Origin: Limnohabitans sp.
GTDB lineage: Bacteria > Pseudomonadota > Gammaproteobacteria > Burkholderiales > Burkholderiaceae_C
Assembly: GCA_044233865.1 (NCBI GenBank)
Contig: JBIIJK010000001.1
Span: 38,465 to 102,464 of the forward strand
DNA length: 64,000 bases
Direction of reading: 5' to 3'
Below, piece by piece: positions 16,999-22,781 of the stretch. The translations under genes were made by a program, and so were the position numbers. The first letter of the stretch is position 1. Every line of letters begins with the position of its first letter. The notes beneath the pieces are model-generated. The model saw nothing but the letters and a program-made list of their open reading frames with translations, did no database searches and was not told the DNA's origin.

Positions 16999-17177
16999 GA
17001 GATTTTCCTCGTGATGATCACGTTGTCGGGCTGGATCTGTTGCAAAGTGCGCGAGGGTTCACGCGCACTTTCAGGCGCGAAACCCCAGGCTTCAAAGAGG
17101 CCATCGCGCCAACCATACAACAGCGCATTTGACAGCATCAAGACCAGAATCAACCATCGCAATTTCAAGTGTTTCAT
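16995..17177 (-). CDS. small membrane protein (60 aa)
   Basis: Has a single TM segment (LRWLILVLMLSNALLYGW). ATGA start/stop overlaps with birA upstream and the GST gene downstream argue for real translation. Confidence 0.5.
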   Translation of the reverse strand: MKHLKLRWLILVLMLSNALLYGWRDGLFEAWGFAPESAREPSRTLQQIQPDNVIITRKIS

Positions 17178-17947
17178 TTTGGCCGAACACTCACTTCTGC
17201 GCTACTGACTTTCACTCGACCTTTGGGCGTGTCAATTTGCATGGCGCCTTGATCGTCCACGCCAGCACACAAACCGACCAGCCCATCGCTGGTTGCGACG
17301 TCCAAACCGCAAAGTGCGTCGCGCGCATTGAAGCGTTCTTGTAAGGGGCTGAAGCCGTTTGCTTCAAAGCTTCTCAAAGCGTCTAGCAAGGGCTTCACAA
17401 CGCGTTCTAAAGCCAAGGGCGCGCTGACGCCTTGCCAAAACTCAGAGAGAGCCGCAGGAGGCGCTCGGAGGTCTTTGTTGGCGGGCCGTTGGATGTTCAA
17501 GCCGATGCCGATCACGGCATAGCTTTGGTCGCCTTGGCTGGCGGCCTCAATCAAGATGCCGCCGAGCTTTCTTTGATGGCACCACAAGTCATTGGGCCAC
17601 TTGAGTTGGATGTCCTCACCCAGCGACTCAGCCAAGCTGAGCCCGACAGCCAGCGAAAGACCGGACCAATTGCTGGGGTGGTAGGGCAAGCCGATGGAAA
17701 AAGTAAGTGCATGCCCAGGCTCGCCAACCCAAGCGCGCCCTTGACGTCCGCGCCCTGCCGATTGGCGCTCTGCGAGCAACAAAATAGGATCGAGGCAGCC
17801 TTGTCGGGCACGCCGCATCAGTTCGCTGTTGGTGGAGTCAATCTCTGGCAGGATCTCGATGCTGAATCCTGGCCATTGCGGTACCACGGACTGCCAGATG
17901 GCTTCCGCGGGCCAGCGTTGATGGGGAGCCCCAGAGTTCAATGTCAC
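17174..17947 (-). CDS. birA: biotin--[acetyl-CoA-carboxylase] ligase
   Basis: 257 aa with the GRGRQGR(AW) biotin-binding motif. There is no N-terminal HTH domain, so it looks like a group I ligase. Confidence 0.9.
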   Translation of the reverse strand: MTLNSGAPHQRWPAEAIWQSVVPQWPGFSIEILPEIDSTNSELMRRARQGCLDPILLLAERQSAGRGRQGRAWVGEPGHALTFSIGLPYHPSNWSGLSLAVGLSLAESLGEDIQLKWPNDLWCHQRKLGGILIEAASQGDQSYAVIGIGLNIQRPANKDLRAPPAALSEFWQGVSAPLALERVVKPLLDALRSFEANGFSPLQERFNARDALCGLDVATSDGLVGLCAGVDDQGAMQIDTPKGRVKVSSAEVSVRPK

Positions 17948-17968: not shown

Positions 17969-18592
17969 TCAGGCCGCTTTTTTCTTCACGATCTTCAGCT
18001 CTTTTTTGAGCTTCTTGATTTTCTTTTCAATCTTTTTGATTTGGCTGGGAATCTTGGGGGTGGCGGGTCTGCGTTTGGGGGCCAGCAAAGTTTTGCGGCA
18101 ATTGACACTGCCACACCAGCAGGGGTATTCCGCCTTCAGCTTAGGCGTGTAGGGCTCGTCAATGATCAAGCCATAGTCGTAATTGAGCTCTTCCCCGGCC
18201 TTGATGTTGCGCAGGGCCTTGATGTAGATGCGGTCATTTTCTTCATCGGCCTCGCAATTAGGGTTGCAGCTGTGATTGATCCACCTCGAAGAGTTGCCGC
18301 CATGCAAAGCGTCAATGACCCTGTCTTCGTTCACATGGAAATAAAAGGTGTGGTTGGGGTCTGCGGGGTCGTGAGGGTGGCGGTCTTGCGCTTCATCCCA
18401 GCTGATGATCTCACCCACATACTCGTACAAGGTCTCGCCTTCTGCAATGTCTATAAGTGCAAATACACCTTTGCCGTGCACACCAGAGCGACGCACCTGC
18501 ACCCGACGGCCTGCCCCAGGAGGGGTCAATGACTTGACCTTGGCCGCGGGCTTTAAACTTGATTTTGTCGACAGATGAGTTTTTTTGACCAC
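17969..18592 (-). CDS. SET domain protein-lysine methyltransferase with Lys-rich N- and C-terminal tails
   Basis: GTG start. The SET core reads GKGVFA...GETLYEYVGE...RWINHSCNPNC...GEELNYDY, followed by a post-SET-like CWCGSVNCRK. The tail is KKIEKKIKKLKKELKIVKKKAA. Confidence 0.88.
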   Translation of the reverse strand: MVKKTHLSTKSSLKPAAKVKSLTPPGAGRRVQVRRSGVHGKGVFALIDIAEGETLYEYVGEIISWDEAQDRHPHDPADPNHTFYFHVNEDRVIDALHGGNSSRWINHSCNPNCEADEENDRIYIKALRNIKAGEELNYDYGLIIDEPYTPKLKAEYPCWCGSVNCRKTLLAPKRRPATPKIPSQIKKIEKKIKKLKKELKIVKKKAA

Positions 18593-18620
18593 GGCGTGAA
18601 AAATTTGTTATTGTGAAAAC

Positions 18621-18677
18621 ATGTGGGCGCGCGTGTGCGCGTGCCCGTGTGTGTACACGTGCGCATGCGCGCACGCG
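18621..18677. repeat. alternating purine-pyrimidine (CG/TG) tract in the divergent SET/topB promoter region
   Basis: 18627-18644 is 18 nt of perfect RY alternation. 18646-18677 is 32 nt of perfect YR alternation (CGTGTGTGTACACGTGCGCATGCGCGCACGCG). Nested palindromes are GTGTACAC, CACGTG and GCGCATGCGC. Confidence 0.9.
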
Positions 18678-18694
18678 AGACCGGATTGTATGAG

Positions 18695-21664
18695 ATGAAA
18701 ACATTGGTAATTGCAGAGAAGCCTTCAGTGGCTCAAGATATCGTTCGCGCTTTAACGCCGATCGCAGGTAAATTTGAGAAACACGAGGATCACTTTGAGA
18801 GTGAAACCTATGTGGTCACCAGCGCGGTGGGCCACTTGGTGGAAATTCAGGCCCCTGAGAAATTTGACGTGAAACGCGGCAAGTGGAGCTTTGCCCATTT
18901 GCCCGTCATTCCGCCCTACTTCGACTTAAAGCCGGTCGACAAAACCAAAACGCGCCTGAACGCGGTGGTGAAGCAAGCCAAGCGCAAAGACGTGAACGCC
19001 TTGATCAACGCCTGCGATGCGGGGCGTGAGGGCGAGCTCATCTTTCGGTTGATTGAGCAATATGCAGGCACGCAAAAGGCGGGGCAGACCATTCCGTTGG
19101 GCAAGCCTGTGCAACGCCTGTGGCTTCAGAGCATGACGCCGCAAGCCATTCGCGACGGTTTTGACAAGTTGCGCTCTAACCAACAAATGCAAGGCTTGGC
19201 CGATGCGGCGCGCAGCCGTTCTGAAGCTGATTGGCTGGTGGGCATCAATGGCACCCGTGCAATGACCGCATTCAATTCGCGCGATGGCGGCTTCTTTTTA
19301 ACCACGGTCGGCCGCGTACAAACGCCAACCTTGGCAGTGGTCGTGGTGCGCGAAGAGCAAATTCGACAGTTCATCAGCCGCGATTATTGGGAGGTTCATG
19401 CGCAGTTCGATGCTGCCGCGGGCACCTACCCAGGTAAGTGGTTCAACACCGCATGGAAAAAAGATGCCGAGGACGTAGAAAAAAAGGCAGATCGTGTGTG
19501 GACTGCAGCAGAGGCGCAAGCCATTTTGCAGGCCGTTAAAGGCGCCAAAGCCAGCGTCACAGAAGAGGCCAAGCCCACCTCTCAGGCCAGCCCCCAGTTG
19601 TTTGACTTGACCTCTTTGCAGCGCGAAGCCAACGGTAAATTCGGCTTCTCTGCCAAAACCACCTTGTCGCTGGCGCAGTCTTTGTACGAGCGCCACAAGG
19701 CCCTTACCTACCCGCGTACCGATTCGCGTGCATTGCCCGAAGATTATTTGCCGGTGGCCAAGGACACCTTCAACATGTTGGCCGACAGCGGCATGAAGCA
19801 TTTGGCACCGCATGCCCTCACGGCGCTCAACAACGGCTATATCAAGCCCTCTAAGCGTATTTTTGACAATGCCAAGGTCAGCGATCACTTTGCGATCATT
19901 CCTACCTTGCAGGCCCCTTCTGGCTTGTCTGATGCGGAGCAAAAGTTGTATGACCTGGTGGTGCGCCGCTTCATGGCGGTGTTTTTCCCAAGCGCCGAGT
20001 ACATGGTGACCACGCGCATCAGCACGGCGGCAGGACACAGTTTCAAAACCGAAGGCAAGGTCTTGGTCAAGCCCGGTTGGTTGGCCATTTACGGCAAAGA
20101 AGCGGCCGATGAGGTGGACGATGCCAAAGAAGGTGACAAAGGACAAAATTTGGTGGCCGTGGCGCCAGGTGAGCAAGTGGGTGTGGGCTCCGTTGAAAGC
20201 AAGCCCCTCAAAACACGTCCGCCGGCCCGCTATTCAGAAGCCACCTTGCTGGGCGCCATGGAAGGTGCAGGCAAGATGGTTGACGACGACGAGTTGCGCG
20301 AAGCCATGCAAGAAAAAGGTTTGGGTACACCTGCTACACGTGCGGCCATCATTGAGGGATTGATCAATGAAAAATACATTTTGCGCGATGGTCGCGAAAT
20401 GATTCCAACCGCCAAAGCGTTCCAGTTGATGACCTTGTTGCGTGGCCTGGGCGTGGAAGAGTTGTCCAAGCCAGAGCTCACGGGGGAGTGGGAATACAAG
20501 CTGTCGCAAATGGAGCAAGGCAAACTCAGCCGAGAAGACTTCATGCAGCAGATTGCCAACATGACCGAGCACATCGTCAAAAAGGCCAAAGAGTACGACC
20601 GCGACACCATACCCGGTGACTACGCCACCTTGAGCACACCCTGCCCCACTTGCGGCGGTATCGTGAGAGAAAACTATCGTCGGTATGCCTGTGTTGGTAA
20701 AGATGCTGCGTCAGATGACACGGCTGCTGCCGGTTGTGGTTTCTCATTTGGCAAAACACCTGCAGGCCGAACTTTTGAACAAGCTGAAGTTGAGCAATTC
20801 TTGCGCGACAAAAAGATTGGACCTTTAGAAGGCTTCCGCTCCAAGGCGGGCTGGCCATTCACCTCTGAAATTGCACTGAAGTACAACGAAGAAGAGAAAA
20901 ACTGGAAGCTCGAGTTTGACTTTGGCAACGACAAAAACAGCGAAGAGACCGGCGAAATTGTCGACTTCACAGGCAGCGAATCTTTGGGCGCATGTCCCAA
21001 ATGCAGCGGTGCTGTGCATGAGCATGGCAGCAATTACATTTGCGAAAAAGCCGTACCCACAGAAGGTCAACCCACACCCACGTGTAATTTCAAAAGCGGC
21101 AAAATTGTGTTGCAGCAAGTAGTGGAGCGCGAGCAAATTGCCAAATTGCTGAGCGACGGCAAAACCGATTTGCTAGAAAAGTTTGTGAGCAATCGAACGC
21201 GCCGCGCCTTCAAGGCTTTCTTGTCGTGGAATGCCGAAGAAGACAAAGTGGTGTTTGAGTTTGAGCCCCGCAAGAGCAAGTTTCCGCCGCGCAAAACACC
21301 AGCGAAATATGCAGCTGGCGCTAAAACAGCGGCTGGAAAAACGGCGAGTAAGGCCGCAGCTAAAACCACCAAAGCTCCTGCCAAAAAAGCAGCCGCCAAG
21401 AAAACGGCTGCAGCCAAAACACCACGCAAAGCGGCAGTCGGCAACCTTACGCCCAGCGCCGATTTGGCCGCAGTGATTGGTACCGACAAAGTGGCGCGCA
21501 CAGAAGTGGTGAAGAAGTTATGGGACTACATCAAGGCGCAAGGCTTGCAAGACCCTACCAACAAACGCGCCATCAATGCCGATGCCAAACTCAAACCTGT
21601 GTTTGGCAAAGACCAAATCACGATGTTTGAATTGGCGGGGTTAATTGGCAAGCACCTGAGTTGA
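18695..21664 (+). CDS. topB: DNA topoisomerase III with C-terminal zinc ribbons, Ala/Lys-rich tract and SWIB/MDM2 domain
   Basis: Opens with the TOPRIM N-terminus MKTLVIAEKPSVAQDI and has the type IA core. Carries CxxC zinc ribbons (CPTCGG, CPKCSG) and the AK-rich stretch AKYAAGAKTAAGKTASKAAAKTTKAPAKKAAAKKTAAAKTPRKAA. It ends with a SWIB-like segment, LTPSADLAAVIGTDKVARTEVVKKLWDYIKAQGLQDP...MFELAGLIGKHL. The ORF-track start at 18623 reads through the RY tract and is unlikely. Confidence 0.93.
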   Translation: MKTLVIAEKPSVAQDIVRALTPIAGKFEKHEDHFESETYVVTSAVGHLVEIQAPEKFDVKRGKWSFAHLPVIPPYFDLKPVDKTKTRLNAVVKQAKRKDVNALINACDAGREGELIFRLIEQYAGTQKAGQTIPLGKPVQRLWLQSMTPQAIRDGFDKLRSNQQMQGLADAARSRSEADWLVGINGTRAMTAFNSRDGGFFLTTVGRVQTPTLAVVVVREEQIRQFISRDYWEVHAQFDAAAGTYPGKWFNTAWKKDAEDVEKKADRVWTAAEAQAILQAVKGAKASVTEEAKPTSQASPQLFDLTSLQREANGKFGFSAKTTLSLAQSLYERHKALTYPRTDSRALPEDYLPVAKDTFNMLADSGMKHLAPHALTALNNGYIKPSKRIFDNAKVSDHFAIIPTLQAPSGLSDAEQKLYDLVVRRFMAVFFPSAEYMVTTRISTAAGHSFKTEGKVLVKPGWLAIYGKEAADEVDDAKEGDKGQNLVAVAPGEQVGVGSVESKPLKTRPPARYSEATLLGAMEGAGKMVDDDELREAMQEKGLGTPATRAAIIEGLINEKYILRDGREMIPTAKAFQLMTLLRGLGVEELSKPELTGEWEYKLSQMEQGKLSREDFMQQIANMTEHIVKKAKEYDRDTIPGDYATLSTPCPTCGGIVRENYRRYACVGKDAASDDTAAAGCGFSFGKTPAGRTFEQAEVEQFLRDKKIGPLEGFRSKAGWPFTSEIALKYNEEEKNWKLEFDFGNDKNSEETGEIVDFTGSESLGACPKCSGAVHEHGSNYICEKAVPTEGQPTPTCNFKSGKIVLQQVVEREQIAKLLSDGKTDLLEKFVSNRTRRAFKAFLSWNAEEDKVVFEFEPRKSKFPPRKTPAKYAAGAKTAAGKTASKAAAKTTKAPAKKAAAKKTAAAKTPRKAAVGNLTPSADLAAVIGTDKVARTEVVKKLWDYIKAQGLQDPTNKRAINADAKLKPVFGKDQITMFELAGLIGKHLS

Positions 21665-21779: not shown

Positions 21780-22781
<1,002 letters not shown>

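Follow-up and report, generated by a model that had tools for sequence, protein, structure and literature searches.

The 64,000-nucleotide stretch of the Limnohabitans sp. genome analysed here (hereafter the window; 53% G+C) carries a divergent gene pair whose intergenic region holds a tract of alternating purines and pyrimidines. The leftward gene, at 17969–18592 on the minus strand, begins with GTG and encodes a SET-domain protein (from the list of open reading frames; Pfam SET, E = 6.7e-25), its start being bounded by an in-frame stop codon read at 18608–18610. Its rightward partner topB, at 18695–21664 on the plus strand, encodes a topoisomerase III with matches to Pfam Topoisom_bac, Toprim, Toprim_Crpt and SWIB and a full-length match to NCBIfam PRK14724 (1942 bits); a Lys/Ala-rich linker precedes the C-terminal SWIB domain. 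The gap between the two genes is 102 bp. A first-pass annotation had already called both genes and the gap, and the Pfam and NCBIfam matches agree with it. That annotation proposed that the tract is a supercoil-responsive Z-DNA element; we reassess this proposal below, together with other possible roles.

Read directly, the tract consists of a first perfect purine/pyrimidine run of 18 nt, GCGCGCGTGTGCGCGTGC (18627–18644), a single C at 18645 that breaks the phase, and a second perfect run of 32 nt, CGTGTGTGTACACGTGCGCATGCGCGCACGCG (18646–18677), with a third, short alternating piece, CATGTG, at 18620–18625. The 32-nt run, which is predicted to fold into a long hairpin as RNA or as DNA, holds a perfect 7-bp inverted repeat, CGTGCGC (18658–18664) and GCGCACG (18669–18675). 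Counts of alternating runs in the window roughly halve with each extra base (14879, 8422, 4150, and so on down to two runs of 12 nt and one of 13 nt), and 13 nt is the longest run outside the tract. Extrapolating this decay, we infer that about 1e-5 runs of at least 32 nt should occur in 64 kb. The earlier description of the two runs and their 1-nt break thus stands, as does the remark that the window has no comparable tract elsewhere. Flipon sequences are recognised by alternation over at least about 12 bp with CG and TG/CA steps dominant, and both runs, of 18 and 32 nt, are of this kind.

Querying 185,579 species-representative genomes with the N-terminal domain of TopB yielded 80 loci (L001–L080) from several Limnohabitans clades, Acidovorax, Curvibacter and Comamonadaceae/Burkholderiales assemblies, including metagenome-assembled ones; conservation was in this way sampled within Comamonadaceae-type lineages. 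The window's TopB is 100% identical, over the queried part, to that of L001, a Burkholderiales metagenome-assembled genome, and 98% identical to that of Limnohabitans sp. Rim11. The divergent SET neighbour is present in 76 of the 80 loci, the other four contigs being too short upstream of topB to tell, and a search with the SET protein found only close Limnohabitans relatives among its best 120 matches. One locus, L010 (CALPYQ020000144.1), bears the name of a planctomycete, Singulisphaera sp., yet shares 97% TopB identity with the window and has a leader identical to that of LimB, the clade to which the window belongs; the contig is probably mis-binned.

Immediately upstream of the tract, a promoter scan detected a sigma-70-like site on the plus strand, TTGACC-18-TATTGT with a TG extension (18585–18614). 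The −35-like hexamer TTGACC (18585–18590), which the SET start codon overlaps, is replaced by TTGGCC in LimC and shows no conservation in Acidovorax. The extended −10, TGTTATTGT (TGnTAnnnT; 18606–18614), has a diversity of 0.00–0.04 and is invariant in every genus, in 76 of the 76 related loci where the stretch is readable, while positions 3–5 of the −10 hexamer vary (TATGGT, TATTGT, TAACTT, TAAGTT, TAAGGT). From spacing, transcription is predicted to start 6–7 nt after the −10, at A18621, behind the discriminator GAAAAC (together 18615–18621). Most versions have a pyrimidine-purine step at this predicted start, CA or TG in Limnohabitans and Acidovorax, the exception being the Curvibacter locus L080; A18621 is also the first base of the interval marked out in the first-pass annotation. 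Since the extended −10 lies upstream of the tract, the tract most likely spans +1 to about +57, that is, the first 57 nt or so of the topB transcript. These observations correct two earlier statements, one reporting no canonical −35/−10 and the other placing both promoters in or against the tract: the predicted topB promoter is upstream of it and overlaps the SET start codon. A sigma-54 promoter was considered and rejected, as TGGCCACGG and TGGCAAAAAC, compared by eye with the consensus, show no −12 GC.

Every sufficiently long locus displays the same module: the extended −10, a discriminator of about 6 nt, a GC-rich tract of CG, TG and CA steps, a CGCGAGA-like boundary and an ATTGTA box. The tract begins 6–7 nt past TGnTAnnnT in all genera, and the stretch from the −10 to the box measures 44–77 nt in all loci. 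The 3′ boundary itself, CGCGAGA (18674–18680, plus strand), occurs in 12 of 18 clade representatives, the others having close variants. Among 46 distinct tract versions, the alternating fraction of the core ranges from 0.66 to 1.00 (mean 0.85) and the longest perfect run from 7 nt, in L065, to 46–47 nt, in Acidovorax temperans. Every relative with the SET/topB pair has an alternating CG/TG/CA tract at this place, so that the tract passes the conservation check suggested in the first-pass annotation. On whether evolution keeps alternation rather than exact sequence, the evidence points both ways: sequence and length differ between genera, but within clades the exact sequence is kept.

The tract belongs to a conserved island that opens at the −35 region, takes in both tract and box and extends to the first codons of topB. 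In LimB (21 species-level genomes), diversity in the tract core is 0.005, against 0.341 at fourfold-degenerate topB sites, a 68-fold reduction; in LimC (28 genomes), the values are 0.049 and 0.283 (5.7 times lower). A metagenome scan whose only anchors were the promoter and the first bases gave a sample of 156 leaders with 57 distinct sequences, of which 51 leaders are identical to that of the window, amounting to 51 of the 62 LimB contigs. These data demonstrate that the exact sequence is constrained within clades, beyond alternation alone. They also bear on the possibility that the tract is a neutral, hypermutable dinucleotide microsatellite or a generic dispersed repeat without function. 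Tract length does differ among genera and 2-nt slippage events do occur, as expected of a microsatellite, but a neutral one is ruled out by the low tract diversity and the identical leaders. Nor was a second copy of the tract found, either in the 64-kb window or in 563 kb of related loci beyond this position, which argues against a dispersed repeat of the repetitive extragenic palindrome or bacterial interspersed mosaic element type; we regard this whole class of explanations as highly improbable. Alternating runs of at least 15 nt are rare elsewhere in these 563 kb, and the one recurrent case is coding: it lies about 3.65 kb after the topB start in LimC loci, inside a 631-aa open reading frame (ORF), and is unrelated to the tract. 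A phase-variable contingency locus was likewise rejected, with 51 of 62 LimB contigs identical, only three 2-nt events in LimB and the tract placed downstream of the −10. Judged by its conservation pattern, the tract is clearly functional and is kept by selection across a bacterial family.

Relative to clade consensus, the tract has more transitions than transversions, 17:5 in LimC, 14:4 in LimC2 and 12:6 in LimD, as against nearly equal numbers at third codon positions of topB (198:188 and 208:164). All eight distinct indels inside the alternating core are of 2 nt, and all seven outside it are of 1 nt. Transitions and 2-nt indels, however, keep both the alternation and the pairing of (YG)n repeats, and do not separate an RNA from a Z-DNA hypothesis.

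The reading that we tentatively favour, while giving it somewhat less than an even chance, is that the tract is a selected cis-regulatory element, the structured 5′ leader RNA of topB. It is based on four observed features: the tract is conserved, it follows the conserved promoter motif, it has the potential to fold and its substitutions are strand-asymmetric. According to this proposal, the conserved extended −10 promoter (18606–18614), overlapping the SET start codon, would start transcription at about A18621, and the (CG/TG/CA)n sequence would fold in the cell as one or more very stable stem-loops at the extreme 5′ end of the transcript, namely a hairpin, H1 (18625–18646), and downstream helices, with a predicted total of about −42 kcal/mol. 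The AU-richer segment from ATTGTA to the ATG would stay single-stranded, leaving the stem-loops themselves as the active part. Acting in the manner of known 5′-terminal stem-loops, they would guard the topB mRNA from 5′-end-dependent decay and may also slow or pause early elongation, and so set the amount of message. Alternation would then be a way of building a hairpin: (YG)n is self-complementary in every even register, so that such a hairpin could tolerate C↔U changes through G·U pairs and survive 2-nt slippage.

Folding calculations give the stretch 18615–18700 a minimum free energy of −44.1 kcal/mol as RNA (z = −3.6) and −26.4 kcal/mol as DNA. H1, GGGCGCGCG-TGTG-CGCGTGCCC on the plus strand, is predicted by RNAfold at −17.6 kcal/mol and is closed by conserved GGG and CCC blocks; homologous hairpins occur in the LimB, LimC and LimD clades, and the closing blocks are conserved in Limnohabitans-type leaders and the Curvibacter locus despite breaking alternation. 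Variable positions in H1 amount to 8 of 18 in loops and 12 of 74 in stems, with 11 transitions and one transversion among the stem changes and seven transitions and five transversions among the loop changes. Ten of the 12 stem changes, mostly C↔U opposite G, keep the pair in the sense RNA, against 5 of 12 in the antisense, and H1-region purine positions retain G rather than A. There is more TG than CA on the sense strand of topB in 43 of the 46 versions (301 versus 171 overall), and folding is better for the sense than for the antisense RNA, again in 43 of 46. With the predicted start, at most 4 nt are unpaired at the 5′ end in 41 of 47 distinct leaders (median 1). The GGG/CCC blocks, the TG over CA bias and the H1 substitution pattern favour pairing in the sense-strand RNA. 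A DNA cruciform was also checked: the perfect 7-bp inverted repeat (18658–18675) could seed one, but the TG over CA bias yields G·T mismatches on one strand and A·C on the other, and 7 of the 12 H1 stem variants break the minus-strand pair. Applied to 17 LimC versions, RNAalifold returns one long hairpin, and a model with two hairpins, H1 and H2, is equally good.

Several observations weigh against a structured leader. The topB start site is predicted from the conserved extended −10 rather than mapped, and Acidovorax leaders of the L068 type have 8–10 nt unpaired at their 5′ end. When the core alone is compared with shuffles that preserve dinucleotides, mean z is only −1.0 for the sense and −1.4 for the antisense strand, with one Acidovorax sub-clade above zero; the stability of the leader fold comes mostly from composition. 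Two different structures are each about 98% paired, and 73–91% of the pairing persists when partners are slid by 2 nt in either direction. The covariation check of both folds found a two-sided compensatory change at no pair, and, since any even register pairs, covariation cannot prove any fold. Even unpaired alternating segments show only transitions, and the tract only 2-nt indels, neither of which a hairpin requires. The near-total invariance of LimB is stronger than usual for a stem-loop, and the strand-asymmetry and H1 statistics are small and carry no phylogenetic correction.

Other RNA elements were considered for the same region and discarded. An intrinsic terminator or attenuator was rejected, with no terminator-like site in 18400–18900 and the hairpin followed by GAGACCGGAUUGUA. 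A CsrA-like GGA hairpin at ACGGATTGT was dropped, the GGA not being conserved (GAA in several Acidovorax). Rfam 15 returned no family at its gathering score; TG-rich microRNA hairpins reached at most 29 bits where 60–245 are required, and are chance matches.

The first-pass annotation had read the tract as a torsion-responsive element. In the form considered here, negative supercoiling that builds up between SET and topB as they are transcribed divergently would flip it to left-handed DNA, absorbing about nine turns and placing a B-Z junction at the topB start, so that topB and SET output would depend on topology. We estimated the transition with a crude two-state model (10-kb domain, competition from melting and cruciforms ignored), using B-Z energies reportedly those of Ho et al. 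1986. In this model the critical sigma is −0.035 for 18628–18677 (50 bp, 37.6 kcal/mol), the lowest in the window, against −0.042 for the next best site and −0.055 for the median 100-nt tile; orthologous tracts range from −0.034 to −0.042. By this rough two-state estimate, the tract is a strong local outlier for Z-DNA propensity within the window. The threshold nevertheless lies beyond the values commonly given for unconstrained superhelicity in growing E. coli, and transient, transcription-driven supercoiling would therefore be needed. Under such supercoiling the tract DNA is, on this model, a credible Z-former.

Alternation is, moreover, the property common to the 46 versions across genera, perfect runs reach 33–47 nt in Acidovorax, where specific hairpins are weak, and the excess of transitions and the exclusive 2-nt size of the eight distinct tract indels fit the maintenance of alternation. 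A duplex property, however, does not predict strand asymmetry, and transitions are purged within clades as well, as the 68-fold reduction in LimB indicates. The conserved GGG/CCC phase breaks cost Z-Z junctions, and L065 and L059 have runs of only 7–12 nt. A 2026 review (PMC13463272) describes the direct in vivo evidence that Z-DNA regulates genes in bacteria as limited, and in a tree-of-life survey of Z-DNA bacteria are only about 1.5-fold enriched, with the weakest signal near gene starts (preprint 10.64898/2025.12.30.697008). Taken together, the local outlier status, the conserved alternation and the low estimated threshold support the earlier Z-DNA interpretation in part, whereas the promoter position, the exact-sequence constraint, the phase breaks and the strand asymmetry speak against it. 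We consider a torsion-responsive Z-DNA element physically plausible, though on balance unlikely. Its strongest form, a family-wide selected Z-DNA switch at the start of topB-SWIB, and possibly of the SET methyltransferase gene, through which local torsion would set the expression of chromatin-like DNA-topology proteins, appears unlikely; if true, no conserved native Z-DNA regulator would precede it in bacteria, and it might act alongside an RNA hairpin made of the same bases. The RNA leader and Z-DNA roles could coexist in these bases.

A further possibility concerns transcription elongation. The consensus elemental pause motif is −10G, −1Y, +1G (PMC10268239), and non-template (YG)n matches it at every second base, raising the possibility of a promoter-proximal pause array in which RNA polymerase dwells in the leader, possibly helped by a nascent hairpin, making topB output sensitive to elongation conditions. 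The sense strand has 16 motif matches in 60 nt against 6 on the antisense, for a background of 0.038 per nt, and the tract includes the densest 50-nt stretch of the window (17 matches, against a 99.9th percentile of 8). In 15 of 18 clade representatives the sense strand has more matches than the antisense, and a pause array would account for G, not A, being kept at the H1 purine positions. The count, however, follows arithmetically from alternation and the TG over CA bias and is not independent evidence, and purine transitions are tolerated in the 3′ half of the tract. We therefore regard a pause array as improbable.

The constraint on exact sequence, for its part, recalls an operator bound by a sequence-specific DNA-binding or nucleoid protein that covers the intergenic region and is possibly tied to SET or TopB-SWIB. 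Near-absolute conservation within clades combined with turnover between them is consistent with this idea, as are the nested palindromes of the tract, and all 17 clade representatives contain GTGCGC, whereas in shuffled sequences the mean is 10 and 17 is never attained by any hexamer. Such motif sharing is inflated by shared ancestry, however, and the conserved stretch, about 57 nt long, is of low complexity and has no common motif spacing between genera, leaving an operator with a poor chance of being the explanation.

Beyond the tract lies the invariant ATTGTA box (18685–18690, plus strand), which occurs wherever a locus extends over the region. Its spacing from the tract end is fixed, whereas that from the topB ATG varies (3–101 nt). 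Its minus-strand reading, TACAAT, is a candidate leftward −10, raising the question of whether two promoters face each other, with a SET promoter at the box and complementary 5′ leaders starting at the two tract edges; such an arrangement would give transcriptional interference or a double-stranded RNA target. The occurrence of the box in every locus and the tie of its position to the tract, not to the topB ATG, are in agreement with this hypothesis, and the box stays with the tract in L079, where a gene is inserted before topB. Because the SET start codon lies inside the topB promoter, the SET promoter must be to the right of it. The scan, however, recovers a leftward promoter, TTGCCC-16-TACAAT, in A. 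temperans only; on the minus strand it is empty in the window and in L030, and a conserved −35 or TG extension upstream of TACAAT is absent from every clade. All six box bases are also invariant, unlike the topB −10, in which positions 3–5 vary. Face-to-face promoters thus seem doubtful.

In L079, a Burkholderiaceae metagenome-assembled genome, the ORF inserted between the box and topB (2446–2996 of the locus) encodes a twin-arginine-like signal and a WCPFC thioredoxin-type motif, with a stop codon that overlaps the start of topB; beside SET, promoter and box are still found together with a perfect alternating tract of 39 nt. Five Acidovorax loci (L068, L069, L072, L074 and L075) have a short hairpin in the roughly 25 nt after ATTGTAGAAGCG, whose arms, compared by eye, differ between species yet remain complementary (CCGGC/GCCGG, CCGGA/TCCGG, GCCCGC/GCGGGC, CCGGGGC/GCCCCGG); these arm changes look like real covariation in a longer topB leader. 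In most lineages the topB ATG follows the box by only 3–8 nt (window 18691–18697; LimC loci) and no recognisable Shine-Dalgarno sequence stands at normal spacing before topB, for example in GGATTGTAATGACATG. Translation initiation of topB may thus be unusual.

Alternation also has consequences for gene calling. All three stop codons read pyrimidine-purine-purine, which is impossible within an alternating sequence, and the tract is open in every frame because of this. A spurious 24-codon N-terminal extension of topB arises in this way (ORF 18623–21664, from a GTG at 18623), and so does a 25-codon ORF that opens with the ATG of the predicted +1 (18621) and closes with a TGA (18696–18698) sharing bases with the topB ATG. 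We rejected an upstream ORF or translational coupling as a conserved feature, since open frames are automatic in such a tract; in our reading of the LimC sequences, the frame of the 5′-terminal ATG closes after five codons, which argues against a conserved upstream ORF.

Regarding the flanking genes, the TopB linker is histone-H1-like, and the SET protein likewise has a Lys-rich tail at its end; papers on Chlamydiae treat SET and SWIB-topoisomerase proteins side by side. The divergent SET/TopB-SWIB pair of Limnohabitans, Acidovorax and Curvibacter points to a conserved chromatin-like module. The first 15–25 codons of SET, rich in Lys, Pro and Ala (window 18520–18592; LimB and LimC loci), are hypervariable, with a diversity of 0.2–0.5 and indels, and directly adjoin the almost invariant island of promoter and tract. 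Further out, a biotin protein ligase-like gene (17174–17947, minus strand) lies downstream of SET and a glyceraldehyde-3-phosphate dehydrogenase gene (21780–22778, minus strand) is convergent with topB; neither has an obvious functional link to the element.

We found no prior description of this element in the literature. A slippage-prone tract that is nearly invariant across species whose synonymous sites are about 30% diverged, at the start of a topoisomerase gene, is of interest whichever reading applies. For native Z-DNA regulation in bacteria, the evidence so far is mostly computational or from engineered plasmids (PMC13463272), and the topB tract offers a concrete test case under strong selection, with natural variants that pull the hypotheses apart, perfectly alternating in Acidovorax and phase-broken but strongly paired in Limnohabitans. 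Should it be a structured leader only, it would still be an undescribed conserved cis-element controlling topoisomerase III in Comamonadaceae, and it flags SET and TopB-SWIB, a conserved pair, as a co-regulated unit.

Among known systems, the supercoiling-sensitive promoters of gyrA/gyrB and topA resemble this locus in that a topoisomerase gene has an unusual feature beside its −10 and start. The supercoiling response of gyrA/gyrB and topA maps to the −10, discriminator and spacer, whereas the topB discriminator is AT-rich and the unusual part is the transcribed region. Elemental and hairpin-stabilised pause signals share with the tract a sense-strand motif, here at seven times background density, downstream of a nascent hairpin; unlike defined pause sites, the tract is an array of overlapping weak matches, seen in sequence only. 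Plasmid flipons offer another parallel: in work with engineered plasmids in E. coli, (CG)n/(TG)n sequences were shown to flip under transcription-driven supercoiling (Rahmouni and Wells 1989, cited in PMC13463272), and the topB tract is of the same type, has a length in the flipping range, lies between divergent genes and has the lowest estimated threshold in the window. In contrast to those plasmid inserts, it is natural and chromosomal, is under sequence-level selection, has conserved phase breaks and is strand-asymmetric, and its transition is a prediction. Finally, 5′-terminal stem-loops stabilise bacterial mRNAs, including the gyrase mRNA of M. smegmatis (review PMC7509114). As in that mRNA and the E. 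coli ompA leader, a stable hairpin is predicted within a few nucleotides of the putative 5′ end of the topB transcript; as in the gyrase mRNA it precedes a topoisomerase gene, here with the start-codon region predicted to be left unpaired. Unlike these stabilisers, the predicted topB structure is much longer (about 50–60 nt) and strictly alternating, and in one Acidovorax sub-clade leaves 8–10 nt unpaired.

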